57,957 bases of DNA from a virus. Lineage: Duplodnaviria; Caudoviricetes. The notes under the pieces are model-generated. The model did no database searches, had not been told where the DNA came from, and saw only the letters and a program-made list of their open reading frames with translations. The number at the start of each line of letters is the position of its first letter. Position 1 is the first letter of the stretch. The position numbers were made by a program, and so were the translations under genes. The stretch is from the IMG/VR virus record IMGVR_UViG_3300041583_000163, positions 1 through 57,957 of that record. One strand, written 5' to 3'. Positions 7,549 to 52,351 of the stretch are shown here, piece after piece.

Positions 7549-7555
7549 ATTGCGA

Positions 7556-7577
7556 AGGGGGCCGTAACAGGCCCCCT
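7556..7577. terminator. GC-rich hairpin, terminator-like, downstream of the putative SSB gene
   Basis: AGGGGGCC-GTAACA-GGCCCCCT 8-bp stem; weak U-tract. Confidence 0.5.
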
Positions 7578-7590
7578 CTCTGTTTAATTA

Positions 7591-9626: not shown

Positions 9627-11189
9627 TTATGAAATAATTTCGTTGCGGAACAAGTCGACCATAAGTGTGTGGTCGCTCACTTTCGCGGCAACCGCTTTGA
9701 ACATCTTCTGCTCCACGGGGCTACTCTCGATGTGGATGACGCGGACACTGGTTGACGTCTGCCCCTTGCGGTCTGCACGGGCTATGCACTGCACGTAAAG
9801 CTCCACGCTCATCACTGGCCCATAGAACACCACCGTGTCCGCAGCTGTCAGCGTGATGCCATGCGCCGTAGCCTGGGGCTGGAGTACCAGCACCCGCACT
9901 CGGTCGGAACTCTGAAAGTCGTCGATGATCTTGGCGCGCTTGCTGGCGCTTACATCTCCGTGGATCTGCTCGGCTACAATGCCGTGCTTGGTCAGGTCTG
10001 CGTAGATGGTCTCCATGCTGGCCCGGAACAACGCGAAGATCAGCACCTTGCGATCGGTCTCCTCTAGGATCTCGCGCAGCACACTCAGCCTGGGCTTGGC
10101 ATCGAACTCGATCACCTCTTGCATGTCCGTGATGGCAGCTCCGGCAGAAATTTGTAACAATTTACTTACAGCTACGCCCGCATTGACCGCAGAGATCGTC
10201 TCACCCGCCGTGTGCACCAGCATCTGGGTCTTGAGCTGGTTGTAGTATTTGGACTGCTGGGCAGACATCGCCACGTGGCGAGTCTCGGTGATGACAGGGG
10301 GCAGGTCTAGGCAATCTTTCTTGGCAAATCGGATCGCGGGCTGCAGCGCCTCGAACACCAGATCGCGCGCATTGGGCTTGGGCACCCACTTGAAATTGGT
10401 GATCTTGTTCATGACCTTCTCCTTCCAAGCCGTCACGAAGCGCGGCACCCGGTCAGGAGACACCAGCTTTGCCAAACCGAACGCGCCCACCGGGGACTGC
10501 GACGCCGGGGTGCCGGTCATCATCCACAGCAAGGTCTCGGGCTTAAGAATAGAGTTGAGCGCCTTCCAGCGTCTTGTAGTACTATTGGAGTAAGAATTCG
10601 CTTCATCCACGATCACCAGATCAAAGCGCCCATCACTGCGGACCTCTTGCGCGATCAGGTTCAAGCCGTCGTAGTTGACGATCACAAACTCGTAGTCCCC
10701 TTGGACCATCTCGATCCTGCGGGATGCCTGGGCGTGGTGCGCCACGATGGCGCTGCGGTGCATGATGCTGTTCATGATGTCTGCCATCCACGCGGTGTAC
10801 ATGATCGACATGGGGCACAGGACCAGCACCCGGCGCACGCGCTTTTGTTTCATCAGGTAGTCCGCCGCCCACAGCACGCTGATTGTCTTCATGGTGCCCG
10901 CATCGTTGAAGACGAAGCACCGGTTGTGCAGTGTGGCAAACGCTGCCGTATCTATCTGATGCTGCGCGGGCTTGTAGCGCCCGGGCCAGTCATAGCGGTG
11001 GACTATTGGGGATGGCACCTTGGTAAACCCCAGGTTGCGCAGCACCCGCACCTCATCGAGCCCTAGGTACACCAGCACCTCTGCACCCCCACCCTCGAAG
11101 GTCTGAACGACCTTGTGCTTTGGAATTATCGCGAGCTTCTCCGGGAACCGCGTGCGAAGCAGAACGGCCCGATCGTTGATTATTTGCAT
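9627..11189 (-). CDS. SNF2-like superfamily 2 helicase
   Basis: Motif I GTMKT, motif II DEAN, motif III TGTP, HGITLTAA, motif VI QCIARADRKGQ. Confidence 0.9.
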   Translation of the reverse strand: MQIINDRAVLLRTRFPEKLAIIPKHKVVQTFEGGGAEVLVYLGLDEVRVLRNLGFTKVPSPIVHRYDWPGRYKPAQHQIDTAAFATLHNRCFVFNDAGTMKTISVLWAADYLMKQKRVRRVLVLCPMSIMYTAWMADIMNSIMHRSAIVAHHAQASRRIEMVQGDYEFVIVNYDGLNLIAQEVRSDGRFDLVIVDEANSYSNSTTRRWKALNSILKPETLLWMMTGTPASQSPVGAFGLAKLVSPDRVPRFVTAWKEKVMNKITNFKWVPKPNARDLVFEALQPAIRFAKKDCLDLPPVITETRHVAMSAQQSKYYNQLKTQMLVHTAGETISAVNAGVAVSKLLQISAGAAITDMQEVIEFDAKPRLSVLREILEETDRKVLIFALFRASMETIYADLTKHGIVAEQIHGDVSASKRAKIIDDFQSSDRVRVLVLQPQATAHGITLTAADTVVFYGPVMSVELYVQCIARADRKGQTSTSVRVIHIESSPVEQKMFKAVAAKVSDHTLMVDLFRNEIIS

Positions 11190-16440: not shown

Positions 16441-16844
16441 CTCAAAACTACCAAGGATTTGTACTGCTTATGGTCATCGGCACCAGGGCGCACCGACTCC
16501 CACGAATCCGGCGTGTAGGGGCGGTAAACAGACGGCCTTTTGACGATAGCTGTGCCTTCGGGAACCGGGGCTATTGTCTTGACTGACACCGTGACGGCCT
16601 TGTCTGGAAGCACACTACAAAAGCCATTGGCTTTGCAAAGCTCAGTCAGATCATACCGCCATTCAATACCCGGCCGGCCAGTCATCTTGCACAATCCTTT
16701 TGTGCGCAACGCTTTGATAAGCAGATCAATTGAATTCTGGCTCTTGCCGTATTTCGCAAGACCGGCAGCTATTTCTGCGCCACTGCTGCGGGGGTTATTG
16801 CGAAGAAAATCCACCACCTGTTGTTGGTAACTTTGCATGCCCAT
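16437..16844 (-). CDS. Winged-HTH-like protein
   Basis: VVDFLRNNP.SSGAEIA...L...GL pattern; GAAGGA SD before ATG 16844. Confidence 0.55.
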   Translation of the reverse strand: MGMQSYQQQVVDFLRNNPRSSGAEIAAGLAKYGKSQNSIDLLIKALRTKGLCKMTGRPGIEWRYDLTELCKANGFCSVLPDKAVTVSVKTIAPVPEGTAIVKRPSVYRPYTPDSWESVRPGADDHKQYKSLVVLR

Positions 16845-16846
16845 GA

Positions 16847-17041
16847 TTATTCCTTCAAAAATGTTGGCAGCGGTGCCCAATGTGTCCAGTGGTCCGCAGC
16901 ACGGTAAATGCTGTACGTCGCAACGCCAGATGGCCGGTGAATCAGTTGCGGCTTGACGCCGCGTGGGGTGTCTGCGTCGATGTCAAGCCAGTGGTAAGCG
17001 CGGTCCACGGCTGCGGTGCCACTGCTGTTGATGGCGTTCAT
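16847..17041 (-). CDS. Small hypothetical protein (THWxPLP type, DUF551-like end)
   Basis: W..I....P.G...WTHWAPLP. Confidence 0.6.
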   Translation of the reverse strand: MNAINSSGTAAVDRAYHWLDIDADTPRGVKPQLIHRPSGVATYSIYRAADHWTHWAPLPTFLKE

Positions 17042-17193
17042 TTCTGCCCCGACAAAATCTCACGCTCAAGAACTTCCGACGCCTCAAAGATCCGCTTGTG
17101 CAGGTAGTCTGGCATCGGTTTCCCGCAACTGAAACCCCACGATTCGAGCGCGCTGAGTAGGCGCATGAGTTGCAGCAATTCGGGTGTGGTCAT
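17038..17193 (-). CDS. Hypothetical 51-aa protein (not in ORF track)
   Basis: MTTPELLQLMRLLSALESWG...; ATGA overlaps at both ends. Confidence 0.55.
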   Translation of the reverse strand: MTTPELLQLMRLLSALESWGFSCGKPMPDYLHKRIFEASEVLEREILSGQK

Positions 17194-17507
17194 GGCTTTT
17201 CCGCCTTGCTGGCGAGTATTGCGGCGTCGATAGCATCTTTGACGGTGTAAAGTCTAGATTTTCCTGGGGGCGGTACTTCTCGATCAGTGCCTGCGATTTC
17301 AGCCACACCCCCTCTTGCCGTAAAGCATGTTTCCACATAGGCGTATTCTGTTAGCCATTCAAGCCTCTCTGCATCTTGTAGCTTGTCGGCTAGCTTTGTC
17401 AGCACTGCTGCTTCGATTGCTTCAGCATATTCATGCATGTCGATTTCGTCTTCTCCGATTGATAGGCTTTGCCAGATTTCGTCAATCTCTTCTATTGTCA
17501 GTCTCAT
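17190..17507 (-). CDS. Hypothetical protein (DAERxxWL, Ead/Ea22-like tail)
   Basis: LTIEEI..IW, DAERLEWL, DAIDAAI motifs. Confidence 0.65.
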   Translation of the reverse strand: MRLTIEEIDEIWQSLSIGEDEIDMHEYAEAIEAAVLTKLADKLQDAERLEWLTEYAYVETCFTARGGVAEIAGTDREVPPPGKSRLYTVKDAIDAAILASKAEKP

Positions 17508-17875
17508 GGTTTCTCCTTTATGTTGTGTGCGGCTTCTATTGCTCGGGCAATGTTGATTGCATCGTCTGCGAATGTGCCTATGGCTGCTGCCATCTCGCGC
17601 AGGGTTAGCGGCTGCTGTGCTGGTGCTGGTAAAAGGGCAAAAACTGCTTCCGCAATTTCGTCAGCCATTTCAATCTCGCTGGCTGGAATAAAGTCGTCTT
17701 CTGTCATCGTGCCAACCTGCCACGCATTCCAAACACGAGTGCAGACGTAAACGCTTGTCAGGTGATCGCGCACCAAATCGGCAATCTGTTCGACCGTTAC
17801 AAGCGGCTGCCCGCTGGCAAGCTGCGCCTCTAAGTCCAGAACAGTTTTTGTGCGGGTACTGTTGATTGCGGTCAT
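17504..17875 (-). CDS. Hypothetical protein
   Basis: Y.CTRVW.AW.VGTMTEDDF; ARAIEAAHNI end; ATGA coupling. Confidence 0.65.
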   Translation of the reverse strand: MTAINSTRTKTVLDLEAQLASGQPLVTVEQIADLVRDHLTSVYVCTRVWNAWQVGTMTEDDFIPASEIEMADEIAEAVFALLPAPAQQPLTLREMAAAIGTFADDAINIARAIEAAHNIKEKP

Positions 17876-18072
17876 GGCTTTTCCTTTTCTAACTGCGCCT
17901 CAAGAAAGGAAATGCGCTTTTGCAGCGGCTCAATTGCTTGGCGCATCTCGTACTCGGTGTGCAGCGGGGCTCCATCGGGCATCGCGGTGCCCAGGCCGTG
18001 CCTAGGCAGGCCATCACTCTCGAGGTATGCGAATTCTGTCTTGCCGTTGGTCTGTGTGAGTTCGTGAGACAT
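17872..18072 (-). pseudogene. Truncated or chimeric DUF932-like gene
   Basis: N-terminus MSHEL...FAY.....PRHGLG resembles the PWHGLG start of ~300-aa DUF932 proteins, but the ORF is only 66 aa. Confidence 0.5.
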
Positions 18073-18154
18073 TGTGTATCCTGATTAAGTTGAGCTTGTA
18101 GTTTAACAAAAAGATCACGGCTGAAGGCCCGTGACCTGCTGATCCGATGAACGG

Positions 18155-18253
18155 TTAGTTGTTGAAATGCAGGTATAGAAGGGCGACGCCTGCGCATACG
18201 TTTAAGCCTGCCGCGAAGCCGAGCATGGCCCACAGAAAACAGTGCACACTCAT
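18155..18253 (-). CDS. 32-aa hydrophobic membrane peptide
   Basis: MSVHCFLWAMLGFAAGLNVCAGVALLYLHFNN; ATGA-coupled to the upstream gene. Confidence 0.45.
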   Translation of the reverse strand: MSVHCFLWAMLGFAAGLNVCAGVALLYLHFNN

Positions 18254-18981
18254 ACCCAACCCTTCCCGAGGCCGTGCGCTACGATTGCCACGCTGCGCGC
18301 AGCTTGCTGACTGCCTGCACACAGCATGCAGGTGGAGCATGTGGCCCTGCGGCCTGCCTCTTCACTGGCTGGGCACAGAACCTCTTTGCCTTTGACAATC
18401 TCGCTCACGTCCTTGATGACGCGAAAGGTGCGGTAGCTGCGAGCCCATGCCTTCTTGGCGCCCTCCAAGGTGTCGGCGCTGACCATGGTCATCCATGGTT
18501 GCACGTCTGCGGTGGCGTGCCCGCTCTGGTGGGTGTAGCCTGTCCACCCCCGGGCTTTGCTGATGAGCTTGGCCCAGATGTGAGATGGCACAGCGGCCGG
18601 GTCGCCATAGGTACCCAGTCGGATGCGCTGGCCCCACCCAAGATCCTCGATGTCCGTCGGGGTGTCGCGCAGGGGGTACGCACCTTTCTGGTACTGATTG
18701 AACACGACCAGCGGGCCTTGGCCCATGTTGACGTAGCATGATCGCTTCTCGGCCAGCTTGCGCTCTGGGTCCAGAGTAGGCACACCCTTGTGCTTGCAGT
18801 CGCCGCAGATGCTGTAGTCCTCGCCCAGCTTGTTGGCCAAGATCGGGTCCATGTCGGAGCGCATGATGTAAGATTGAATCATCGAACCTGTTTTACGGTT
18901 GGACGAGTTCCAAATAGCAGCTGCGAATATCGGGGCGCCGTCGATCCTGGACGGGCCGTTGTATATGGTGATGCCGGGCAT
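18250..18981 (-). CDS. Cys-rich putative Fe-S (radical-SAM-like) phage protein
   Basis: N.KTG, CGDC...CY, RLGTYGDP, GYTH, CPA...C..C.LC, I..HG motifs. Confidence 0.6.
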   Translation of the reverse strand: MPGITIYNGPSRIDGAPIFAAAIWNSSNRKTGSMIQSYIMRSDMDPILANKLGEDYSICGDCKHKGVPTLDPERKLAEKRSCYVNMGQGPLVVFNQYQKGAYPLRDTPTDIEDLGWGQRIRLGTYGDPAAVPSHIWAKLISKARGWTGYTHQSGHATADVQPWMTMVSADTLEGAKKAWARSYRTFRVIKDVSEIVKGKEVLCPASEEAGRRATCSTCMLCAGSQQAARSVAIVAHGLGKGWV

Positions 18982-19003
18982 TGTGTATTCCTGATTGATT
19001 TGA

Positions 19004-19034
19004 GTTACCGCAGAACCGCTGCGGTGCCGGTGTT
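19004..19034 (-). repeat. Intergenic hairpin element copy 1
   Basis: GTTACCGCAGAACCGCTGCGGTGCCGGTGTT. Confidence 0.95.
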
Positions 19035-19038
19035 TTTC

Positions 19039-19422
19039 TTAAGCTGTCAGATCGTCTGGCACTTCGGCGGTGTCGCCGATCTTGCTGACCACGTGGCAGC
19101 GCATGGCTGCGACAAGCATAGTTGGGCCAACTGACCTGTTACCGCCTCGCATCCGGCACTCCCACTCTTTGAATGTGGCGATGTACCCGGACTGAATCTT
19201 CTCCCGCTCAATGATCGGCCCGCCTAGAGACCAGTCGGTCGAGTATTCAACATTGGAGAGATATTGCATCGACTCGGGAAAGTCGTCGTCTTTCGGGGTC
19301 GTGTAGACCCAAAAAGAGCGCTCTCCATAAATATGAATACGCAGGTCAGTAGCACCCTCGCATTTCGCCACCAGCCAATTAAGCTGGATGTTGGTGGCTT
19401 CTGACACTTTGACTTTGTTCAT
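19039..19422 (-). CDS. NinX-family (DUF2591-like) protein
   Basis: LNWLVAKCEG...YSTDWSLGGPIIEREKI...GPT.LVAAMRC.V.SK.G. Confidence 0.8.
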   Translation of the reverse strand: MNKVKVSEATNIQLNWLVAKCEGATDLRIHIYGERSFWVYTTPKDDDFPESMQYLSNVEYSTDWSLGGPIIEREKIQSGYIATFKEWECRMRGGNRSVGPTMLVAAMRCHVVSKIGDTAEVPDDLTA

Positions 19423-19437
19423 TGTGTTTCTCCTGTG

Positions 19438-19468
19438 GTTACCGCAGAACCGCTGCGGTGCCGGTGTT
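19438..19468 (-). repeat. Intergenic hairpin element copy 2
   Basis: GTTACCGCAGAACCGCTGCGGTGCCGGTGTT. Confidence 0.95.
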
Positions 19469-19471
19469 TAC

Positions 19472-19678
19472 TTACGAGGTCTTCGCTTTTATTGGTTGAA
19501 ATTGCGGGCACTGCGCATCACCCCAAGAGTTGTATTGGGCCACGTAGTGGTCTCGATCAAACATTCGGAGCACGTCAACTCGTGAGGGTTCTTTGCAAAC
19601 CCCCCGGTGGCATGCCCACGCTGAAAACTTGCAACTAAGAACTACTTTGTTGTCGACAGTTTTTGTGCAATTGCTCAT
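19472..19678 (-). CDS. Small Cys-rich hypothetical protein
   Basis: 68 aa, AGGAG SD. Confidence 0.55.
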   Translation of the reverse strand: MSNCTKTVDNKVVLSCKFSAWACHRGVCKEPSRVDVLRMFDRDHYVAQYNSWGDAQCPQFQPIKAKTS

Positions 19679-19690
19679 GTCCGTTCTCCT

Positions 19691-20032
19691 TTAAGAGGTC
19701 TTCTTAGCCCGCACGTCAATGCGGAAGTACCCTGCCGTCGACACGGTGTGCGCGACGACCCTTTGCTTGCTGGGCTTCATGCTGATAGCCATGGCCTGCC
19801 AGTCGATCTTGGTGCCGCCGGGCACCTCGGACACGGTGCAGCGGAAGAAGTCGGACTCGTATGCGCGCTTGTTGTGTGAGATCAGCAGATCCTTGCACGC
19901 CGCCTCCTCGACCTTGAGCGCTGCGATGGCGCCCTTGATGTATGCCAGCCGGTCGACGGCCTGCTCTGGGGTTGCCATGGCCACGGGGGCGTTGGGGATG
20001 GTGCTGTTGATGGCTTCGATAAAGGTAGTCAT
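19691..20032 (-). CDS. Hypothetical protein (coiled coil)
   Basis: 113 aa, CAGGA SD directly after element copy 3. Confidence 0.7.
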   Translation of the reverse strand: MTTFIEAINSTIPNAPVAMATPEQAVDRLAYIKGAIAALKVEEAACKDLLISHNKRAYESDFFRCTVSEVPGGTKIDWQAMAISMKPSKQRVVAHTVSTAGYFRIDVRAKKTS

Positions 20033-20054
20033 TTTGTTTCCTGATGGGAGAGGT

Positions 20055-20085
20055 GTTGCCGCAGAACCGCTGCGGCGGCGGTGTT
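20055..20085 (-). repeat. Intergenic hairpin element copy 3 (variant)
   Basis: GTTGCCGCAGAACCGCTGCGGCGGCGGTGTT. Confidence 0.9.
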
Positions 20086-20089
20086 TTTG

Positions 20090-20491
20090 TTATGCTGTGG
20101 GGAGCGTGAAGGTCAGGCCAAGCTGGCGCGCTACCGCTTTCATCTGCTCGTGGAAATCCCCGATGGTGTGCTCGCCATACTTACTGTCGGGCATATGGTT
20201 GTCGTGAGTTTGTTGCATCTGGTCGACCAAATTCGAGGCTTGCGCTGTATCGGGTACACCCGACTTGACCAATGCCTCGAATGGAGCCCCCCTCACGGCG
20301 ATTTTCCCCTCTAGCTCTCGGGTGTAGTGCTCATCGGCGATAAGCCACCCTGCGGCGCACTTGCGCCCCTCGGTGCCCCTGTACTGGCAGCTGATGTCAC
20401 ACTCTGGGTTGGTGCGCCCCGTGCTGGCTACGCCCTGCGTGGTGAGGTTTGTGAGTACTGTGTCGAACATTTGTTGAAGTGTGAGAGTCAT
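20090..20491 (-). CDS. Conserved hypothetical phage protein
   Basis: QQMFD.V...L..QG, C.YR...G.KCA.G.LI.D..Y, Q..HD motifs. Confidence 0.75.
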   Translation of the reverse strand: MTLTLQQMFDTVLTNLTTQGVASTGRTNPECDISCQYRGTEGRKCAAGWLIADEHYTRELEGKIAVRGAPFEALVKSGVPDTAQASNLVDQMQQTHDNHMPDSKYGEHTIGDFHEQMKAVARQLGLTFTLPTA

Positions 20492-20691
20492 GTCTTTTCT
20501 CCTATGGTGTTTCCGAATAGCTGCGCCCTTGCTAAGTGGCGATACCTACACTGGTTGTTTGCGTCCGTGAAGGCGTAGCCGTTGCTCATGGTGTCGGTGC
20601 GCCAGAACTCGTTCCATTCACCTTGCAGCTCCTCTTCACAGATCAGGGTGAGGTTCTCTTGGCGTTGGCGAATACCAGGATATGCGGTCAT
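20488..20691 (-). CDS. Hypothetical protein
   Basis: 67 aa; ATGA coupling at both ends. Confidence 0.55.
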   Translation of the reverse strand: MTAYPGIRQRQENLTLICEEELQGEWNEFWRTDTMSNGYAFTDANNQCRYRHLARAQLFGNTIGEKT

Positions 20692-20855
20692 TTGTAGCTC
20701 CAGAAGATGAGTGCGGCCACAGCTGCAGCCGTGGTGATTACGATAGCGATGCCGTCCCAGTCAACGCGCTGGCGCTCCCCCAGTAGTGCGCGCTGTATGC
20801 GCAGGTCGTCGCTGCCGATGCGCACGCCGGAGCGTGTGGTGTATGGTGTTTTCAT
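20688..20855 (-). CDS. 55-aa protein with C-terminal transmembrane segment (not in ORF track)
   Basis: MKTPYTTRSGVRIGS...GIAIVITTAAAVAALIFWSYK; ATGA coupling. Confidence 0.55.
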   Translation of the reverse strand: MKTPYTTRSGVRIGSDDLRIQRALLGERQRVDWDGIAIVITTAAAVAALIFWSYK

Positions 20856-21511
20856 AGTTCGATCTGTGTTGGGTCAAAGGTGGCAGCTGCGATGTTGGCC
20901 ATGCCCAGATACTGAAGCGCTTTGACATGCGTCTTGTCGCCATTGGTGTCAATGAGCACCTTCGAGCGGAACTCGGCCAGAGTGCCAAAGAAGCAGCTAC
21001 TGCGTACCCGGATAGCGTCTACGTGGTTGAAGAAATACGTGGTGCGTGCTTCAGTGCCTGCCCCTGCAATAGCCAGAAACGGATACCCCTCCTTTACTTT
21101 GGAGCCCTCGAAGCGGCAACCTACACCGAAGCGGCAACCTACACCGAAGCTGCACCGCGCACCGAAGCTGCACCGCGCACCGAAGCTGCACACCGCACCG
21201 AAGCTGCACCCCTCGCCGAAGCTGCACCACGCACCGAAGTTGCACCCCTCGCCGAAGCTGCACCACGGACCGAAGCTGCACCGCGCACCGAAGCTGCACC
21301 CCTCGCCGAAGCTGCACACCGCACCGAAGCTGCACCGATCACCGAAGCGGCAACCTACACCGAAGCTGCACCGCGCACCGAAGCTGCACCGCGCACCGAA
21401 GTTGCACCGCGCACCGAAGACACGGATGTCTGTGTAGTCCCCTGACGGGCACTGTCGAAAACCATCAACGATTGGGAAGGCGTCGAATTCTTCTTGTGTG
21501 TATTTTTTCAT
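20852..21511 (-). CDS. Hexapeptide-repeat (beta-solenoid) protein
   Basis: 17 x FGxxC(S/R/N) repeats; C-terminal RTTYFF...V..SCF.GTL.EF...V cap. Confidence 0.8.
   Translation of the reverse strand: MKKYTQEEFDAFPIVDGFRQCPSGDYTDIRVFGARCNFGARCSFGARCSFGVGCRFGDRCSFGAVCSFGEGCSFGARCSFGPWCSFGEGCNFGAWCSFGEGCSFGAVCSFGARCSFGARCSFGVGCRFGVGCRFEGSKVKEGYPFLAIAGAGTEARTTYFFNHVDAIRVRSSCFFGTLAEFRSKVLIDTNGDKTHVKALQYLGMANIAAATFDPTQIEL
21113..21418 (-). repeat. 18-bp tandem repeat x17 (coding)
   Basis: Plus-strand unit ACCGAAGCTGCACCGCGC with variants. Confidence 0.9.
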
Positions 21512-21521
21512 GTCGTCTTCC

Positions 21522-21821
21522 TCAGATGTTTTGTAGGATGAACTGCCGCACGTCGGCGGGCAGGCTGTCGAAGCTAACGCGTTTGCCCAGGTGTCGCCCG
21601 GTCAAGAACTCGGGGTTCTCGCCGTGCTGACCAAAGCCTTGCGGGTGAAACGGCCTTACGCCGGCGGCGAGGTACGGGTAGACCATTTCGTAACTCGAAA
21701 GAAACCGGTAGCCCTTGAAGGCGATGGTGTACCGGTCGGCTGGGCCGTCTGGCCCTGTGTCGAAGATGCGGCAGGTCATGCGCTTGCCGTCGACGATGAT
21801 GGTGTTCTTGATTCGAGTCAT
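21522..21821 (-). CDS. Hypothetical protein
   Basis: D.G....DRYT...PFHPQGFGQHG...HLGKRV.F..LP.DV; AGGAG SD after element copy 4. Confidence 0.7.
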   Translation of the reverse strand: MTRIKNTIIVDGKRMTCRIFDTGPDGPADRYTIAFKGYRFLSSYEMVYPYLAAGVRPFHPQGFGQHGENPEFLTGRHLGKRVSFDSLPADVRQFILQNI

Positions 21822-21835
21822 GTCGTTTCTCCTGA

Positions 21836-21866
21836 GTTGCCGCAGAACCGCTGCGGTGCCGGTGTT
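21836..21866 (-). repeat. Intergenic hairpin element copy 4
   Basis: GTTGCCGCAGAACCGCTGCGGTGCCGGTGTT. Confidence 0.95.
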
Positions 21867-21871
21867 GTTCT

Positions 21872-22021
21872 TCAGATGCTCTCTTCCCAACCCCAAGCGC
21901 TGAGGTTGGACGGCTGGTGCTTGCTGGTGTAGGCGTTCATCTGCACTGCCTTTGTCTTAGACAAGTGCGTCCACTCGGTGCGCTCTCCAGAGCGAGTGAT
22001 GGTGTAAAAGGTGTATCTCAT
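21872..22021 (-). CDS. 49-aa hypothetical protein
   Basis: AAGGA SD before ATG 22021. Confidence 0.55.
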   Translation of the reverse strand: MRYTFYTITRSGERTEWTHLSKTKAVQMNAYTSKHQPSNLSAWGWEESI

Positions 22022-22031
22022 GACGTTTTCC

Positions 22032-22331
22032 TTAGCGGTAAAAGGTGACGTAGGTAATTTTGGCCAGCACTGCTGCCTTCGCATCTGCCCGGTTCTTGGC
22101 TCTCACGTATATCCGGGTGCCTTGAGCTGCTGGCGCGTTGAAGGCGCACCACATGGGCATGCCCATACCCCAGTACGTGCCGTCGGGGGCGTAGGCCGCA
22201 TTGACCATGTTGATGCGCTGTAGGTACAGCTTCAGGGTCATGTCGTACCTGTCCGAGTCGCCCATGGGGGATCCAAAGCGAGCGGGGCACGGGTCGTTGC
22301 GCAGGATGGTGTTGATGTTTGGCGTTGTCAT
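22032..22331 (-). CDS. Hypothetical protein, paralog A
   Basis: 99 aa; 80/99 identical to 23055..23354 by manual alignment. Confidence 0.8.
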   Translation of the reverse strand: MTTPNINTILRNDPCPARFGSPMGDSDRYDMTLKLYLQRINMVNAAYAPDGTYWGMGMPMWCAFNAPAAQGTRIYVRAKNRADAKAAVLAKITYVTFYR

Positions 22332-22356
22332 GTCATTTCTCCTGATGTGTATGCGC

Positions 22357-23007
22357 TTAAGCGCTGGTCGGGAACAGCTCTTCCTGTGTGTATGCGGGCT
22401 CGATGTCTATCGCTTGCGCCAGGGCGAGCATGGCTTCACAGGTGACGTACTCCTCCCCGTAGAAACCCCAGCATGAGTCCAGATGCTTGCGCTCAATCTC
22501 CTCACCGGCATCGTCACACTCGATGCGCTCAATGACGTAGCCGTAGACCTCACCCCTCAAATACATGGCGAACTCGTCAACCACGCCGTCGATGTACTGG
22601 TGAGCCTTGTCGCGCTGCTTGGGTGATAGGCGCTTGTTGCCCCATTCTTTGAGGGCGTCTTTGTCCGTCATGTAGGCCCAGCCGCTGCGCCCGCTGTCCC
22701 AAGGGCATTGGTACGGGTTCTCGCGCAGTCGTGTGCCGTCGGGCAGCAAGCTGCCGGTGCTTATGGTGGCCCCACTGTGGACGTAGGCCCACACCCGCAC
22801 GCCGACCAGCAGGCCGCTCTCGATGTCTTGCCCGATCTGGTCAAGCTCGTCGTGGGTGCAGGGCTGGTTGCCCAGCGTGTTTCGTGCGCTGCCTCGGTAG
22901 GCTATTCTGACGATGTCGCTCTCGGGCGGCTCTGCGTTATCGTCCTGGTAGATGCTGGCCACGATGTTGGCGTGGGTGGTGCTTGCGATCTCTTTGACTT
23001 TGTTCAT
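22357..23007 (-). CDS. Hypothetical early protein
   Basis: Y.HSG, CPWDSG..G, YL.GEVYGY.I, DSCWGFYG motifs; acidic; AGGAG SD after element copy 5. Confidence 0.75.
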   Translation of the reverse strand: MNKVKEIASTTHANIVASIYQDDNAEPPESDIVRIAYRGSARNTLGNQPCTHDELDQIGQDIESGLLVGVRVWAYVHSGATISTGSLLPDGTRLRENPYQCPWDSGRSGWAYMTDKDALKEWGNKRLSPKQRDKAHQYIDGVVDEFAMYLRGEVYGYVIERIECDDAGEEIERKHLDSCWGFYGEEYVTCEAMLALAQAIDIEPAYTQEELFPTSA

Positions 23008-23020
23008 GTTGAACTCCTGA

Positions 23021-23051
23021 GTTGCCGCAGAACCGCTGCGGTGCCGGTGTT
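23021..23051 (-). repeat. Intergenic hairpin element copy 5
   Basis: GTTGCCGCAGAACCGCTGCGGTGCCGGTGTT. Confidence 0.95.
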
Positions 23052-23054
23052 CTC

Positions 23055-23354
23055 TTATCGGTAAAAGGTGACACTGGTCAGTTTGGCCAGCACTGCTGCC
23101 TTCGCAGCGGCGCGGTCCTTGGCTCGCACATACACTCGGGTGCCCTGAGCTGCTGGCGCGTTGAAGGCGCACCACATGGGCGCGCCCATGCCCCAGTAGG
23201 TGCCGTCGGGGCCGTAGTACCAGCCGATGAAGTTGACGCGCTGTAGGTACAGCTTCGGGGTCATGTCGTACCTGTCCGAGTCCCCCATGGGGGCGCCGAA
23301 GCGGCTGTTGCGGGGGTCTGTTCTCAGTATGGTGTTGATGTTGGGCGTCGTCAT
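23055..23354 (-). CDS. Hypothetical protein, paralog B
   Basis: 99 aa; paralog of 22032..22331. Confidence 0.8.
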   Translation of the reverse strand: MTTPNINTILRTDPRNSRFGAPMGDSDRYDMTPKLYLQRVNFIGWYYGPDGTYWGMGAPMWCAFNAPAAQGTRVYVRAKDRAAAKAAVLAKLTSVTFYR

Positions 23355-23355
23355 G

Positions 23356-23610
23356 TCAGAGGTCCTCCCAAAAAAGGATGTTCACGTCGCCCTCGGCCAC
23401 GCCAATGACGCTTACGTTGTCGGGGGTGTAGTGGAGGTGGTCAAAGTCGTCCGCGTCCTCCGGGTCGGGGTTGCCGTTCCAGTCGTCGCAGCATTCGGCG
23501 AGACCCTGCGACTTGGCGTGTTCGAGACTCTCGGCCAACACGGTTGAAATCCAGATCGTGCCGGTGTTGTTCGACTCCCGGCAGAACACGGTGTAGGGTT
23601 TCAGTGTCAT
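23356..23610 (-). CDS. Small acidic hypothetical protein
   Basis: 84 aa, D/E-rich, AGGAG SD after element copy 6. Confidence 0.7.
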   Translation of the reverse strand: MTLKPYTVFCRESNNTGTIWISTVLAESLEHAKSQGLAECCDDWNGNPDPEDADDFDHLHYTPDNVSVIGVAEGDVNILFWEDL

Positions 23611-23630
23611 GTCTTTTCTCCTGATGGTTT

Positions 23631-23662
23631 GTTACCGCAGAACCGCTGCGGTGCCGGTTGTT
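23631..23662 (-). repeat. Intergenic hairpin element copy 6
   Basis: GTTACCGCAGAACCGCTGCGGTGCCGGTTGTT. Confidence 0.95.
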
Positions 23663-23671
23663 TGACACTGG

Positions 23672-23884
23672 TTACTCTGTTCCGGGGAACTCGGCGTCCC
23701 AGTCGATTGGTGCGAAGCTCTTGCGGTCACGCTCGTCTTCTTCAGCGTGTCGCTGCTTTGTAGCCTCGCGTTTGATGCGGTCACGTTCTTGGCGCTCTCT
23801 CTTTTTTATCAGCGCCGGGGGCTCTACCTTCGGGGGTGTGTCGTCCCACCCCCTCATGATCTGGGGCAGTGTTGGTGCGTTCAT
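23672..23884 (-). CDS. Hypothetical charged protein
   Basis: 70 aa; ATGA coupling. Confidence 0.55.
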   Translation of the reverse strand: MNAPTLPQIMRGWDDTPPKVEPPALIKKRERQERDRIKREATKQRHAEEDERDRKSFAPIDWDAEFPGTE

Positions 23885-24219
23885 TTATCGACTGCCGGCG
23901 GTAGTTCCATAGAGCCTGTATCTCGGGATGCTTTGAAGCGCGCTGTGGCAGCGCGTATTAGGGGTAGTGGCACGCCTGGGCCGAAGTCGATGTTTATGTT
24001 GCGAGCGCTCAGCTTGGGGTGGCACCAAGTCATGGCGTGCTTACTTGATAGGGTCAAACTGGTTAGCTCCCCCGCCGCCATGCTGTCTAGTGCGGCGCTG
24101 ATCCGGGCCAATTCACTTACCGCATAGTCGGGGCTATCCACCCACCACCGCCCGGTGTCGATGAACGTGATGCGTGGTGTCACCCACATAGCGGTGCGGG
24201 TTCTGTATGTCTTGTTCAT
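23881..24219 (-). CDS. Hypothetical protein
   Basis: ATG 24219 overlaps the upstream stop; GAGGAG SD. Confidence 0.55.
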   Translation of the reverse strand: MNKTYRTRTAMWVTPRITFIDTGRWWVDSPDYAVSELARISAALDSMAAGELTSLTLSSKHAMTWCHPKLSARNINIDFGPGVPLPLIRAATARFKASRDTGSMELPPAVDK

Positions 24220-25457
24220 TTGGCTAGCTCCTCGTCGATGGCGGCGCAGGCCGCATGGTAGGCAGCGAGTTGCTGCGAATACTGGATCTGTACGGCCTCG
24301 GGCACTTCGCTGTCTCGGACAAGCGCGGCGCGGTCCTTGCGTGTCATGTGCAGGTCCTCCACCCGCTCGAAGATCCACGTGTCGCGGTGAAACATAAACA
24401 TAGGCATGTCCCCCAACTTACGGCCACCCCACTTACCTGTGAAGCGGTCTCGGGGCTTGGCGTGCTCAATGCTGGCGAGATCTTGGCGCACATACCAAAG
24501 CTCGAGCAGACGGTCCATTGGACGAGGACCCAGTGTTTCGTACATGTCGGGGTGGTACAGCATGTAAGTGGGCGTCTGAACGATTCGGTTCTCCGGCGTG
24601 TCGCTGCTGTTCACACGATTGAGCACGGCCAAGTTAGCCACACGAACAAGCACTGCCAACGCCATTCGAGCCGACAAGGCCCACTCGGAGCTGGCCCGCC
24701 CGTAAGGCGTCATGTCTCCTCGGAAGCGGCGCACGTCGTTGCGTACGACGGCAATCTGATTGGCCAAAGAGCTGTTGTTGTACCAAGGGTGCTTGGGGTA
24801 CGGTGTGGCCACTCTGCGGGCGCGGTGCCTGGGTTCTTTGACAGCTGGGAGTATGGGTAGAAAGTGGCGCTCTCTGAGGTTGTGTGACCTGATAGATGTG
24901 TCTCGGTCGGGGTCAGCTCTTCGGGCAGCGTTGCGAGCGCGCACGTCTGCGATCCGCTCTCTGGCGTTCATGGGCACCACGTCGCCCCTATGCCACCATG
25001 TCCAGCGTCTGAGTGACGCGTAGTCGGGATAGTCGGCTCGTTTCTCGGGAGGGGTGTCGGGGGTGTCGGCGCGCCCCCTGCGGTCGAGTTCTATCTGCGC
25101 GGCGCTCTCACTTATGCGGCCCCGGGTGGCCTCTAGGTGTATCTGACTTGCCGGGAGATTCTTGAGCGCGCCCGCCCTTTCTGAGTGGTATTGGGGTTGG
25201 CACGCCTTGCAAATGGAGCTGAAGCGGTGACTTGGGTTGCCCAGAGGGTCTGTGTTTCCGGTCTGTTTTGCTTGCGCTGCGGTCAGGGTTCGCCTGAAGG
25301 ACTGGGTGTTCTTGGCCTCTTTGCACTTGAGGCAGACGATTTTTGTCTTCGAGCATGCGTTGCACGTGAAGGGTTCGTTCAGGATATTGAAGGCTTGCTT
25401 GCGTTTCACGCTGCCGCAAGCGGTGCAGAGTGTGTGTAGGGTGGTGGTCTGTTTCAT
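24216..25457 (-). CDS. Arg-rich protein with N-terminal zinc-finger-like CxxC pairs
   Basis: 413 aa; CTAC, CNAC, CLKC, CKAC. Confidence 0.65.
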   Translation of the reverse strand: MKQTTTLHTLCTACGSVKRKQAFNILNEPFTCNACSKTKIVCLKCKEAKNTQSFRRTLTAAQAKQTGNTDPLGNPSHRFSSICKACQPQYHSERAGALKNLPASQIHLEATRGRISESAAQIELDRRGRADTPDTPPEKRADYPDYASLRRWTWWHRGDVVPMNARERIADVRARNAARRADPDRDTSIRSHNLRERHFLPILPAVKEPRHRARRVATPYPKHPWYNNSSLANQIAVVRNDVRRFRGDMTPYGRASSEWALSARMALAVLVRVANLAVLNRVNSSDTPENRIVQTPTYMLYHPDMYETLGPRPMDRLLELWYVRQDLASIEHAKPRDRFTGKWGGRKLGDMPMFMFHRDTWIFERVEDLHMTRKDRAALVRDSEVPEAVQIQYSQQLAAYHAACAAIDEELAK

Positions 25458-25464
25458 GTCTGAA

Positions 25465-25805
25465 GTATGGCATAAATTATAGCGGTAGGTGTGTCGACGT
25501 ATGGCATAAAGTAACTAATTGGTAAATCTGCCGGATAGGGGGGTGTGCGAACGGGGCAGGCTTAACCTCGCGTGGCACCCTTAAGTCGTTGATTTATAAG
25601 GGAAAATTTGGTATGTGCAGCAAGGTACACCGGCGCTGTGGAGAACTTTTAAAAACAAAAACAAAAACAAAAACAAAAACAAAAACAAAAACAAAAACAA
25701 AAACAAAAACATAACTATATATATATCTTTAAAGTTAAATAGTATTTATATAGGTAGTGTCCGTCACTCACCGCCACCAAAAACCCCCGCTATATCAACG
25801 ACTTA
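25465..25805. other. AT-rich non-coding element, candidate replication origin or control region
   Basis: (AAAAAC)x10 at 25651-25710, AT-rich run, inverted repeat TAAGTCGTTGAT 25582-25593 / ATCAACGACTTA 25794-25805, direct repeat GTATGGCATAAA at 25465 and 25499. Confidence 0.5.
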
Positions 25806-25945
25806 GGTATGTCACGCGGGGTCCTCAACCCCGCTCTTGAGTCCTCCCATCACGGCAAATTCGGTATTTTATGCGACGCTAAGCAGGCACCACTGCCCCT
25901 GGAAGCCCCGGCCCACCTCAATCTCAGGCGTTTTGGAACCATTTT

Positions 25946-26146
25946 TCAGCTGTCACGGTCGAGGTCTTGCGCCTCTAGGGCGCAGCGTATGCACTGCTCG
26001 TCTGACGCATCCCACCCGGGGGCGGTGTACACGCCCTCAAAGACGAACCCGCCCTCGTGTGTCCGTTTTCGGTAGAGGGTGAACGTGGTGCGGCGCCCGT
26101 TCATACTCACGTTGCGCCTCCCCACTACTCGGAAGTTCTCGGTCAT
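25946..26146 (-). CDS. Hypothetical protein
   Basis: 66 aa; ATGA coupling, GAGG SD. Confidence 0.6.
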   Translation of the reverse strand: MTENFRVVGRRNVSMNGRRTTFTLYRKRTHEGGFVFEGVYTAPGWDASDEQCIRCALEAQDLDRDS

Positions 26147-26400
26147 GGCTCGACCTCCCCATAGGCGCTGGGGATCTCACGCCCGCTGTGGGCGCAGATG
26201 CGGGGCGGGCCTTCCCAATGAATAAACACTGCGACAGCGATCCAGTCGCGCCCCGTCTCGCGACGGATCAGGCGGTAGTGCTCTCGGGCGGCCTGGGCGT
26301 CTATCACCTCGCCGTCCAGCATCATTAGGGCGCACTGATACACGCCGGGCCATGCGTAGCCCCCGGACCTGATGAAGTCTTTGAGGTCCGCTTTTTTCAT
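26143..26400 (-). CDS. Conserved hypothetical phage protein
   Basis: YAWPG.Y...DG......A...I.WE....C.H....I.SAYG; ATG 26400 with GGAGG SD. Confidence 0.7.
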   Translation of the reverse strand: MKKADLKDFIRSGGYAWPGVYQCALMMLDGEVIDAQAAREHYRLIRRETGRDWIAVAVFIHWEGPPRICAHSGREIPSAYGEVEP

Positions 26401-26552
26401 TGCGCTGCCTCCAACTGGCGGGCCAGCCGGTACAGGCTCGGGGGTACGCCTCTCAGGGCGCAATACCGCTTCGCGGCGTAGTCACCCCACACCTTGCGTT
26501 CTTGCGCGGCTCTGACGGCGTGGTAGGCCTCTGGGGTACGTGTTGTGGTCAT
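26397..26552 (-). CDS. 51-aa hypothetical protein
   Basis: WG.YAA.RY....GV...LY.LARQLE; AAGGA SD. Confidence 0.6.
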   Translation of the reverse strand: MTTTRTPEAYHAVRAAQERKVWGDYAAKRYCALRGVPPSLYRLARQLEAAQ

Positions 26553-26687
26553 GAGGTTTCCTTGTTCGTGCCGAACTGGCACACCGTAGGCGTGTTGGTG
26601 CCTATGGTGTGCCCCCTGTTGCCAAGGAGCATTCGTTCTCGGGGTGTCTTTTGACACTGGTTGTGGCGCAGTGGCGCCTTGTTGTGT

Positions 26688-27386
26688 CGGAACCGCGCGG
26701 CAAACCACGCGGTTCCGCTCTGAGGTTATGCATAACTTGCATAACACTATGCTTGCTGACTGATTCTCAAATGCCAGAACTGCCGCACACGTAGTCGTGA
26801 TGTTCGTTTGAGACTGTCAGCACCATGCGCCAGTAACCCTAGCACTCGCGGAATTCCGGGTTTGGATATCTGTCAAGCTGTAAACATTCGCCCATAGCAA
26901 AGCGCCCGCTCGGTGTCTGTACCGCTCGGGTTTGGGATTACGTGGGGTTTTTTGATGCGTGGCGCATCGAATGATTACAGCGCCTGATAGTCAGTCCGCG
27001 CCCATGTTGGCGGGTGATAGTTCGGTGGCGCATGGCGGCGCCTTAGATGGCGCCTCATAAAGTGGAATCTGCGCAGCGTTAGAACGCGGTGAAAATAACA
27101 ACGAAAGCAAACCGGGCAAGCGTATTAAACGGTTACGGGTTTGCATTGTCCGACCCAGGCGCGCGATGCGACAGGGGGGAAATGGTATTTTCAGCGGGTG
27201 CTTCGCTGCGCAGATTTTTAAAGGGCAAGCCTAGGGGTGATGCGCTACCGAACATGGCGCGCATTGCGGCATGAGGGAAACGAATACACCGACAACATAA
27301 GGGTAAACCCTTACAAGGAGGGGCCGGAACGATACCGGGTTTCCCATGCGCAGCAAGCCACGCATGGGAAACCCCCCGCAAGGGGT
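26688..27386. ncRNA. Candidate large structured non-coding RNA or ssDNA element
   Basis: No convincing ORF; nested helices 27020-33/27240-53, 27066-78/27204-16, 27090-97/27186-93, 27107-13/27138-44, plus hairpins at 26688-26717, 26755-26821 and 27337-27374. Confidence 0.5.
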
Positions 27387-27397
27387 CTAAAGCGCCT

Positions 27398-27997
27398 TCA
27401 GAAGGGGGGCAGCGCGTCCTCTGGGGGGGTAGTAGCCTTAGAGGGCTTGGAGGGCTTGGAGGGCTTGGAGGGCTTGGAGGGCTTTGCAGCGAGCGCAGCA
27501 AGCGCAGCGTCAAGGTCAATTTTCAGCCGGGCATTCTCACTTTCCAACCGTGCAATGGTTTCCTTGGCGGTTTCCATGTCATTTGCCACCCTAGGTTTAG
27601 GGGCCACGAAAAACCCCTCAAACACAGTGAACATGGAAGACAAGGCGGCATCGTGTGCCATCTGGTCAAACTGGCATGACTTACCAGCGTAACGCTTACC
27701 CTTGCCACATTCCATGGCCAATGCCGCCCATGCGCGGCCAATTTTCCGGGCGGTACCCTTGCCCTCCTTTGCCCAACTCCACAGTGCGGGCACTAGTGTG
27801 CCATTGTGCTGCGCAGCTTCAACGAAATCATTCGAGTTGCCGCCCGACACCAGGAAGATAGAAAAACGCGGGGCAATGGCACCCCACAAACGTTCCGTCT
27901 TCTCCTGGTGCCCCTTGCTGGGGGACAGGATATCTAACGCCTGTTTGTCGCCTAGCACCAATGGGATGGTTTGGGTTTGCTTGCTTGCGTTTGTCAT
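27398..27997 (-). CDS. Hypothetical protein, first gene of the leftward arm (coiled coil plus PSK repeats)
   Basis: 199 aa; CAGG SD; (PSK)x4 encoded by 9-bp repeats. Confidence 0.65.
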   Translation of the reverse strand: MTNASKQTQTIPLVLGDKQALDILSPSKGHQEKTERLWGAIAPRFSIFLVSGGNSNDFVEAAQHNGTLVPALWSWAKEGKGTARKIGRAWAALAMECGKGKRYAGKSCQFDQMAHDAALSSMFTVFEGFFVAPKPRVANDMETAKETIARLESENARLKIDLDAALAALAAKPSKPSKPSKPSKPSKATTPPEDALPPF

Positions 27998-28346
27998 GGT
28001 GAGTTACCTGATTAGTTGATAGCGGCGCTATCGGGGTTGTGTCGAATCGACCAATGAAATGTAGCACGGCAAGCCTTATTACGTGGCGGTTTTGTCAAAC
28101 GATGGGCCGATGCGCGCCAGAACGGCCATGGGGTCGAGGGTACGGGGTGGCACCCCCCATATTTTTGACGTGGCGCCCCCGCGCGCATGTACTGTGTTTC
28201 ACAGCAACGCTCACGTAAATTGTCAAACTCCAGTCAACCCAATCCCAGAAAACGTCAGCGCACACCAAACAGCCACACCCCCCGGGGCTATCAAAAAAAT
28301 CAAGCCTAATTTCTGTCAAACCCCCAACGCCACAAAGCGCGTGACG

Positions 28347-28382
28347 AAAAAAAGCCCCCCATGCTTGCCTGCTTGGGGGGCT
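28347..28382 (-). terminator. Intrinsic terminator-like hairpin (minus strand)
   Basis: AGCCCCCC...GGGGGGCT stem preceded by an A-run on plus (U-tract on minus). Confidence 0.55.
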
Positions 28383-28507
28383 CTAAAATCCTTTGCAGGA
28401 CATCAGGAGACGCAATGACTGCCAAGCGAACTTGGCCTCACCACACCTTCAGTGTACACTGCGCACACCCCGGGGGCAACCCCATCGCTAACTCCAAGCG
28501 CTCACAC

Positions 28508-29089
28508 ATGTTCGACAGCCTCCTGGCCTTGCAGATCGAGACCGAAGACACCGCAGCCCCGCTGCTGGTGAAGGACGCCACGTCCACCCAGGTCCTAAAC
28601 GCTCTGTACAGCAGCGCCGGCACAGACAACCCATTTGCAGAGTTCGGTGCGCCCTCGGACGAAGAGATCGACATTGCCATGCACAGCAGGGACGCCCGGG
28701 CCGCGTTCACCACGCTGATCACCGAGCCCGACGACGACAAGAAGAAGCTGGCGCTAACAACCATCAAAGCGCCCGAAGCAGTCCAGCATCTAGTCGCAAG
28801 CCTCACAGCATATGACTGGGAGTTCATTGAGCAGGCCAAGGGCATCCGGGGCAAGGTAGTAGCCACCCTGCTCAACGAGTTGGAGCACCCCGACGCTCGC
28901 ATCAGGTTGAAGGCCGCACAGCTCTTGGGGCAGGTATCCGAGGTCAGCCTATTTACCACCAAGGTCGAGGTGAAGACCACAGTCACCCATGACAGCACAG
29001 AGATCGATGTCCGGGTAGCAGAGCGCCTGCAACGCCTTCTGGACAGTACCGTGGTGGTCGAGGTACTGGAGGCGCCTAGTGGAACTTAA
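28508..29089 (+). CDS. Putative terminase small subunit
   Basis: Directly upstream of and overlapping TerL; DARIRLKAAQLLG..SEV.LF pattern. Confidence 0.65.
   Translation: MFDSLLALQIETEDTAAPLLVKDATSTQVLNALYSSAGTDNPFAEFGAPSDEEIDIAMHSRDARAAFTTLITEPDDDKKKLALTTIKAPEAVQHLVASLTAYDWEFIEQAKGIRGKVVATLLNELEHPDARIRLKAAQLLGQVSEVSLFTTKVEVKTTVTHDSTEIDVRVAERLQRLLDSTVVVEVLEAPSGT

Positions 29090-50743: not shown

Positions 50744-52347
<1,604 letters not shown>

Positions 52348-52351
<4 letters not shown>

Follow-up and report, generated by a model that had tools for sequence, protein, structure and literature searches.

A 31-bp element occurs six times between small genes in the genome of a tailed phage (Duplodnaviria, Caudoviricetes; IMG/VR virus record IMGVR_UViG_3300041583_000163), and comparison with phage and bacterial loci points to a compact RNA structure with a counterpart inside a bacterial operon. 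The window analysed here is the whole record, 57,957 bp of linear DNA with an estimated completeness of 91%. In the sense strand of the polycistronic mRNA each repeat would encode an H-type pseudoknot of about 27 nt, situated between the stop codon of one gene and the ribosome-binding site (RBS) of the next, and the same architecture is found between nusG and rplK in bacteria. The element is a new RNA motif, common to a bacterial operon junction and several phage lineages. With a little better than even confidence I read it, from sequence comparison, as a host-derived, cis-acting mRNA leader or boundary module, whose near-identical copies double as crossover points.

A preliminary description of this DNA had reported six copies in one orientation, all intergenic and each between a stop codon and a Shine-Dalgarno sequence (SD). 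All six are recovered when the whole window is scanned for the 31-mer with up to three mismatches (plus strand throughout, Table 1), and 100 dinucleotide-preserving shuffles contain no match. The two changes noted at that time in the copy at 20055 are present, but the copy at 23631 also has two, which had not been given. A covariance model of the family returns from the window the same six copies only, at 45.5-50.9 bits, the next best match scoring 10.6 bits. The array genes (19004-23661) are all encoded on the minus strand, and on this coding strand the order is always stop codon, 6-13 nt, ACCG-GC-ACCGCAG-cggtt-CTGCGGY-AAC, AGGAG or AGGAA, and ATG. The distance from stop codon to ACCG is 7, 6, 7, 8, 6 and 13 nt in the six copies, and the ATG begins 16-25 nt past the end of the 7-bp stem. 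Successive copies are spaced by 434, 617, 1781, 1185 and 610 bp, and the lists of open reading frames (ORFs) give 1, 2, 5, 3 and 2 ORFs for these intervals, in agreement with the one to five genes described before. A U-tract after the stem, the feature of an intrinsic terminator, is seen in none of the six copies, a promoter scan finds no sigma-70-like -35 or -10 site on them, both as had been stated, and the tail of the element leaves no room for a promoter ahead of the SD. Programmed readthrough or frameshifting was considered and rejected: the next ATG is in frame 0, 1, 0, 2, 2 and 1 with respect to the upstream ORF, so that there is no consistent fusion.

The repeat had been introduced as a hairpin element. 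It is structured, it is strand-specific and it bounds the cassettes, but the initial account missed a second pairing, as the 5' flank ACCG, 2 nt ahead of the stem, is complementary to the first four bases of the loop, CGGU. The predicted fold is that of an H-type pseudoknot, compact at about 27 nt: stem 1 has 3-5 bp, and stem 2 has 7 bp and is crossed by a 2-nt linker; a 2-nt L1 across a 7-bp stem is usual in H-type pseudoknots. The flank-loop pairing is supported by compensatory changes in phages, and strongly so in bacteria. At one site, before a shared downstream gene start (ATGGGTACACG), the pairing is ACCC:GGGT in G003, a complete relative of the phage, and ACCG:CGGT in G006 (L037:3401), and a further copy in G006 pairs GCCG with CGGC. 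A likeness of the stem to helix 45 of 16S ribosomal RNA was also considered, and the variant stems give it no support.

Searched for exactly among viral contigs, the 17-base hairpin core has 24 matches, distributed over 18 contigs; 22 of these matches have CCG in an identical position 5' of the stem, though it was absent from the query. The layout in the relatives is CCG, 1-2 nt, a covarying 7-bp stem and a CGGUY loop. G003 (66.9 kb, with 40-83% protein identity in the core genes) has the stems CAGCAG/CTGCTG, CCACAG/CTGTGG, CAGCGG/CCGCTG and CCGCAG/CTGCGG and the loops CGGTC, CGGAC or CGGTT, every copy being upstream of an SD. A second lineage (G007 and others), in which a neighbouring protein is 54-56% identical to the 243-aa protein of the window, carries arrays of ACCCGTA-GCCGGTG-cggtt-CACCGGC at the same position, and its 19-mer has 33 matches in viral contigs, 32 of them with CCG just 5'. 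When perfect hairpins of at least 6 bp are collected from 955 kb of related loci, CGGTT is the most frequent pentaloop (24 cases) and ACGGT the runner-up (19 cases), with at most 6 cases for every other loop. The ACGGT peak is explained by a near-perfect 17-bp palindrome of lineage 2 (L038-L042, L082), GGGGGAAC(G/C)GTTCCCCC, which is found in both orientations, often followed by a T-run and often adjoining the pseudoknot.

Among 54 distinct copies, selected by a filter that asks for CCG, CGG and at least 5 stem pairs, six of the seven stem pairs change on both sides, 97.9% of the cells are paired, and the stem covariation score is reached by none of 500 shuffles; the variety of the stems is not built in by the filter. 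Non-Watson-Crick pairs within the stem are all G.U and on the sense strand, in phage and bacterial copies alike. SD, start codon and open frame follow within 70 nt in 48 of the 54 family members, with the start codon a median of 25 nt past the stem (range 14-58 nt). Phages G004, G005, G008 and G009/G010, which are without the core genes of the window, contain the exact 23-mer once, intergenic and in the sense of the next gene, and no protein family common to all carrier phage groups was found. A search of the motif against known sets, which had been proposed at the outset, finds it neither in Rfam nor in GenBank phages: Rfam 15 gives no match on the elements in window positions 17000-29000 (E up to 10), and short-query blastn of both element types against GenBank phages gives chance partial matches only.

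Two further structures accompany the element in its relatives. A second conserved palindrome, GTGAGCAYYGCTCAC, adjoins several pseudoknot copies on either side in G003 (L029, about 50880-55860) and in G006, and may be an operator or a second hairpin. At G009 10291-10320 and G010 16625-16660 an AGAACC further downstream is available for pairing with the 3' half of the element (GGTTCTGCGG), and the alternative hairpin so formed excludes the pseudoknot.

The 23-mer (CCGGC-N plus the core) has two exact matches in about 185,000 bacterial and archaeal species, and the element is therefore not a repetitive extragenic palindrome (REP) of a host. One match is a 1.8-kb contig (L274) of an Azonexus metagenome-assembled genome (MAG), where the element is situated between the 3' end of nusG and the rplK leader; ACCGGCGCCGCAGCGGTTCTGCGGCAA is common to this contig and phage G004. 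The phage-like form, with an ACCGG flank and a loop starting with CGGTT, is present at nusG|rplK in 6 of 30 family-level loci (L310, L311, L313, L314, L315 and L317), 4-8 nt past the nusG stop in five of them and 25 nt in L315. It directly precedes, without a U-tract, the L1-binding leader GAGGAGCG...ACUCA, and this leader is a short bulged stem according to the accessible text of PMC3616713. The host family of the element is the betaproteobacterial family that includes the Azonexus MAG. In five such genomes the nusG|rplK copy is the only real match of the covariance model per genome, the other matches being coding sequence without the loop. No host counterpart had been expected at first; this holds in so far as the element is not a host REP, but not beyond, as the nusG|rplK pseudoknot matches it.

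Other bacterial members have different stems, and their flank-loop pairs still match (GGGC:GCCC, GGGG:CCCC, AGGC:GCCT, ACGG:CCGT, GGGCAG:CTGCCC, GGAG:CTCC, AGGCG:CGCCT and GGGCG:CGCCC). At least four contiguous Watson-Crick flank-loop pairs are present in 22 of 38 nusG|rplK spacers, compared with 6.0 +/- 2.0 when the pairings are permuted, and 22 is reached in none of 2000 permutations. At a fixed register, 73 of 100 flank-loop cells pair in the 25 spacers with stems of at least 7 bp, against 30-53 at other registers (73 reached by none of 5000 permutations), and both C-G and G-C occur frequently at each of the four flank-loop positions. The bacterial and phage elements have the same architecture, and both are found on the sense strand, past the stop codon of one gene and ahead of the next gene's leader. 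However, bacteria have one copy, with the L1-binding stem behind it, whereas the six copies in the window are each directly followed by an SD, and variation of the flank-loop helix is much greater in bacteria than in phages. On six bacterial loci Rfam 15 gives only tRNA and two weak off-element matches below the gathering score. In E. coli the spacer between nusG and rplK is arranged differently and lacks the pseudoknot. The 19-mer of lineage 2 has the L1-leader motif downstream in 0 of 120 bacterial genome matches among those listed, a set dominated by one conserved coding stretch of Streptomyces. Literature searches found no description of the motif, including in the accessible parts of PMC10931766 and PMC3616713; the supplementary alignments of the latter might show an upstream structure.

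Whether gene content between the copies varies, with breakpoints at the motif, had been put forward as a check. It does, which supports the reading of the array as cassettes with the element as a recombination handle: junctions between relatives lie at or inside the element in G001, G002 and metagenome contigs. G001 and G002 are partial relatives, 97-99% identical to the window outside the array and mosaic within it. G001 is without the NinX cassette, and a single element there has the 5' flank of copy 2 on one side and the 3' flank of copy 1 on the other; it also has an element directly ahead of the homologue of the 219-aa gene, where the window has an extra 99-aa gene in between. The cassette at 23055-23610 is swapped for other element-bounded cassettes in both G001 and G002. 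Contigs of three other metagenome runs have joints that end at the 5' edge of the element, at 19035, 19469, 21866 and 23663, and joints exactly at this edge make up 4 of 15 among the 15 of 31 joints listed. The crossovers fall within the repeat, at no single fixed point, and leave chimeric copies. An A.C mismatch at the outer (seventh) stem pair, which occurs in four distinct copies, is what a crossover between A-U and G-C variants would leave, and copy 4 of the window looks like such a chimera of the A-U and G-C types. That the array is recombinase-free, as had been suggested, agrees with scans against Pfam and PHROGs, in which no recombinase gene was recognised.

If the phage element is a copy of the bacterial leader element between the nusG stop and the L1 leader of rplK, the phage copies would act in cis via host machinery, without a phage-encoded partner. 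Taken together, the sense-strand location of the G.U pairs and the bacterial site suggest a cis-acting RNA element read by that machinery. Placed after a stop codon and ahead of the next RBS, a stable fold could make the initiation region of an acquired gene independent of the sequence upstream of it, and could shield the transcript from encroachment or decay; in those relatives that have a U-tract behind the fold, attenuation of transcription would be a further effect. As the copies are nearly identical, they could serve as crossover points for homologous recombination, which would add, delete and swap promoter-less cassettes among co-infecting relatives. A more tentative extension, which I consider possible but well short of probable, is that the pseudoknot is an undescribed host-factor signal at the nusG / rplKAJL-rpoBC junction, captured by unrelated phages, that wires accessory genes to growth-rate control and at the same time provides a recombinase-free exchange site. 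Such a signal could act via antitermination or ribosomal-protein feedback.

Several observations weigh against a leader or boundary module. The element is missing from the other gene junctions of the phage, so that it is not a general requirement for expression, and the spacer between stop codon and pseudoknot ranges from 1 to 22 nt across the family, which implies no single geometry with respect to a terminating ribosome. The flank-loop helix is invariant in the six window copies, and its pairs therefore prove nothing there. With a 5-nt loop only 1-2 nt are left to cross this helix, which is sterically tight, and perhaps only three flank-loop pairs form in such copies. Whole-spacer folding energies, computed with ViennaRNA, which does not fold pseudoknots, are not better than those of shuffles (z +1.1 to -2.1). 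Owing to the filter on the 54-copy set, the paired percentage and the invariance of CCG and CGG are partly built in. The Azonexus contig is without the nusG stop codon, and there is a second nusG-rplK contig in its bin. Finally, 6 of the 54 family members pass a strict U-tract criterion, and about 14 of 52 phage copies carry or precede a U-tract hairpin when their tails are read by eye; these copies fit a role in transcription termination at least as well.

Transcription control is the main rival, and I give it a real but minor chance. The element would then be an attenuator, a terminator or an antitermination signal for host RNA polymerase, leaky without a U-tract and efficient with one, and tuned by the flank-loop pairing or by a closely following ribosome; alternatively, the pseudoknot would let polymerase pass terminators downstream of it. 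U-tracts directly after the hairpin are seen in L037 (CTGCGGC-TTTTTT), in G003 (CTGCGGC-ATTTTTG) and in lineage 2 (CACCGGC-ATTTTCTTTC). Several copies of lineage 2 and of the L007 group have a canonical hairpin with a U-tract a few nt downstream, right before the next SD, so that the next gene needs read-through, and several order-level nusG|rplK spacers have, at the same place, a G+C-rich hairpin followed by a U-rich run. However, none of the six window copies has a U-tract or is flagged in the minus-strand terminator scan, the bacterial copies run directly into the L1 leader without one, and neither conservation of the loop nor a flank-loop helix that covaries would be required of a plain terminator. 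An operator for an RNA-binding protein, either of the phage or linked to nusG-rplKAJL of the host, which would control translation of the next cistron, is unlikely. It would account for the invariant loop CGG and flank CCG of the phage copies, whose stems vary, and for the location of most copies near a start codon; moreover, the host copy adjoins the L1 operator of an operon that the accessible text of PMC3616713 describes as autoregulated, and an Arg-rich, 413-aa protein with CxxC motifs is encoded by the gene that opens the unit upstream of the array. But the bases supposedly recognised vary in bacteria in a compensating manner (GGGC:GCCC, GGGG:CCCC, ACGG:CCGT), which points to pairing and not to base-specific protein contacts, and no protein family is common to all the unrelated carrier phages. 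The 413-aa protein itself has its sole homologue in G003 (32% identity), no family match, and nothing useful in a sequence search of solved structures.

A signal at the DNA level, either a hairpin promoter like those of phage N4 or a single-stranded recombination site like attC, seems very unlikely. A fixed loop, a covarying stem, one orientation, a location upstream of genes without a sigma-70 motif and the cassette-like layout would all suit it, and the coding-strand 3' end GYAAC loosely resembles an attC core. However, no RNA polymerase, sigma factor, integrase or HUH/Y1 enzyme was recognised in a record estimated as 91% complete (65 ORFs against PHROGs; 32 and then 22 translations against Pfam), the crossovers are not at one fixed point, the G.U pairs are on the sense strand only, and the same element is found inside a bacterial operon. 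The phage-specific promoter that the preliminary description had put forward is not supported by these results: no polymerase or sigma gene was recognised, the stem covaries around a fixed loop, and there is the bacterial site. The scans of the window ORFs also found no REP-associated tyrosine transposase (RAYT), and a 1098-aa protein matched only unnamed viral clusters in Atlas, nothing useful toward a phage polymerase. Hardly credible, finally, are antisense-strand terminators that stop opposite-direction transcription entering the block. The plus strand of the copies at 19004, 20055 and 23631 is flagged as terminator-like in a consensus scan, and the coding-strand 5' flank is A-rich, but the T-run begins 7-8 nt past the stem and does not adjoin it, the elements keep a fixed position with respect to the next SD, the G.U pairs are on the sense strand, and the bacterial counterpart is sense to nusG-rplK. 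Sigma-54 and extracytoplasmic function (ECF) sigma sites, ops/RfaH, boxA, Csy4 repeats, the RNase P minihelix and uptake sequences were compared by eye with consensus sequences and set aside, as spacing or key bases do not fit.

Table 1. The six elements of the array and the cassettes between them (window positions; strand of the sense RNA).
Feature	Position	Strand	Description
Copy 1	19004..19034	-	S1a ACCG 19028-19031; S2a ACCGCAG 19019-19025; loop CGGTT 19014-19018; S2b CTGCGGT 19007-19013; 50.9 bits (covariance model); upstream of 243-aa gene
Copy 2	19438..19468	-	7th pair A-U; upstream of NinX-family gene
Copy 3	20055..20085	-	flank ACCG-CC; 7th pair G-C; upstream of 113-aa gene
Copy 4	21836..21866	-	7th pair A.C mismatch; upstream of 99-aa gene
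Copy 5	23021..23051	-	7th pair A.C; upstream of 216-aa gene
Copy 6	23631..23661	-	flank AACCG complementary to entire loop CGGTT; upstream of 84-aa gene
Cassette between copies 2 and 1	19039..19422	-	127-aa NinX-family protein; missing from G001 and from contigs of runs X3 and X4
Cassette between copies 3 and 2	19472..20032	-	113-aa ORF (19691-20032) and 68-aa ORF (19472-19678)
Cassette between copies 4 and 3	20090..21821	-	ORFs of 99, 219, 55, 67 and 133 aa
Cassette between copies 5 and 4	21872..23007	-	ORFs of 216, 99 and 49 aa
Cassette between copies 6 and 5	23055..23610	-	ORFs of 84 and 99 aa; replaced in G001, G002, X3 and X4

The cassettes had been read as host-takeover or anti-defence genes, which is conjectural, and NinX and a CCCH-type repeat are the only named domains among the array genes. 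The repeat is in the 219-aa ORF (20852-21511, minus strand), which consists mostly of 18-nt tandem units encoding CSFGAR-like hexapeptides, with Pfam matches to CCCH zinc fingers and to hexapeptides, and whose number of repeats differs between G001 and the window. The 68-aa ORF is mostly deleted in G001. Two paralogous 99-aa ORFs (22032-22331 and 23055-23354, minus strand) are situated in different cassettes, and their homologue in G001 is a cassette of its own right behind an element; the window copy at 22331 retains the leader (ATCAGGAG...) without the element.

In the leftward block of the window, small ORFs are accompanied by genes for replication (family-A DNA polymerase, DUF927 primase-helicase, SNF2 helicase and PD-(D/E)XK nuclease), and the rightward block contains the structural genes; that the array genes are early is inferred from their position alone. 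The DNA polymerase is at most 30% identical to those of Rhizobium RHph_TM3_14A and Pseudomonas KPP25/phiR18, and megablast of the region against GenBank phages gives no match. The gene of the 413-aa protein (24216-25457, minus strand) has several CxxC motifs in its N-terminal part, and its coding nature is backed by third-position GC. Next to it, in the middle of the leftward block, about 490 bp are noncoding (25458-25945, minus strand). This stretch is very A+T-rich in part and has a microsatellite of (GTTTTT)n, a perfect TATAAT situated 20 nt upstream of the 413-aa gene, TTATGCCATAC in two copies and, at about 25834, a structure like a pseudoknot; metagenome contigs break in it, and it may be a promoter or origin region. 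A second pseudoknot-like structure, unrelated in sequence to the array element, follows the 364-aa gene at 7540-7590 (minus strand), where a hairpin AGGGGGC...GCCCCCT has a loop CTGTT complementary to AACAG 2 nt upstream. Two HNH/homing-endonuclease genes (36954-38498 and 39492-39986) are located within the structural block, near the major head gene. In metagenome run X1, a contig piece matching 17206-17237 is flanked on both sides by a 28-base, type I-F-like repeat, and hence a spacer against the phage exists in that metagenome within clustered regularly interspaced short palindromic repeats (CRISPR). This repeat is widespread in genomes of Burkholderiales and Gammaproteobacteria, and arrays with matching repeats (80 of 109 stretches) contain no significant spacer against the window or its relatives, only two chance matches of 16-17 nt, so that the spacers do not name the host.

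The element is a new small RNA motif in which both helices covary. It combines a defined single-copy bacterial site, beside the L1 operator, with multi-copy use in phages, so that its function is testable in bacteria or in phage. For a group of uncultured phages it is also a hint at the host, and the accessory gene pools of unrelated phages could be connected through the identical element that they carry. If an insulating role is true, it would also be a compact natural part for polycistronic constructs.

Each of several known systems shares some features with the array. Like REP sequences and bacterial interspersed mosaic elements (BIMEs), it consists of intergenic palindromic repeats at gene boundaries, and like attC sites these bound cassettes. 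However, the element is not dispersed in hosts, with one real copy per genome in five genomes, and it measures about 27 nt with a perfect stem of 6-7 bp and no integrase found, whereas attC sites are long imperfect palindromes, of tens to more than 100 nt, with R and L boxes and a tyrosine integrase as their partner. The hairpin promoters of N4 have a 3-nt loop and act on the template strand; the array element has a 5-nt loop, and no polymerase was found. The nut site of lambda (boxA and boxB) and put of HK022 are small sense-strand RNA elements in early operons, and in boxB a pentaloop closes a short G+C-rich stem, with a conserved single-stranded part on the 5' side. The array differs from these in having six copies per operon as opposed to two, a flank that pairs with the loop, and an occurrence in a bacterial operon as well; an N-like gene was not recognised in the window. 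Closer in form are the H-type pseudoknots in the mRNA leaders of T4 gene 32 and of the S15 and S4 operators, which act in cis upstream of the RBS and are single sites bound by the product of their own gene. The array element is likewise a predicted leader pseudoknot ahead of the RBS, but it precedes at least six unrelated genes.

The preliminary description had pointed to the PeSLs of T4-like phages, composite terminator and promoter motifs at which homologous recombination swaps variable genes, as far as the accessible text of PMC4122927 describes them. The likeness is that of a short conserved motif repeated between small variable genes, with indels and replacements among close relatives bounded by the motif. 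In contrast to the PeSLs, the array element has no sigma-70 promoter, and of the terminator stem-loop the hairpin is present but the U-tract is missing in the six window copies and present in some relatives. It also differs in being a predicted pseudoknot with a single-copy host counterpart, and in occurring in unrelated phages that are not T4-like. PeSL-style shuffling would thus not be limited to T4-like phages or to promoter-terminator motifs, as a host-derived leader pseudoknot could serve the same purpose.

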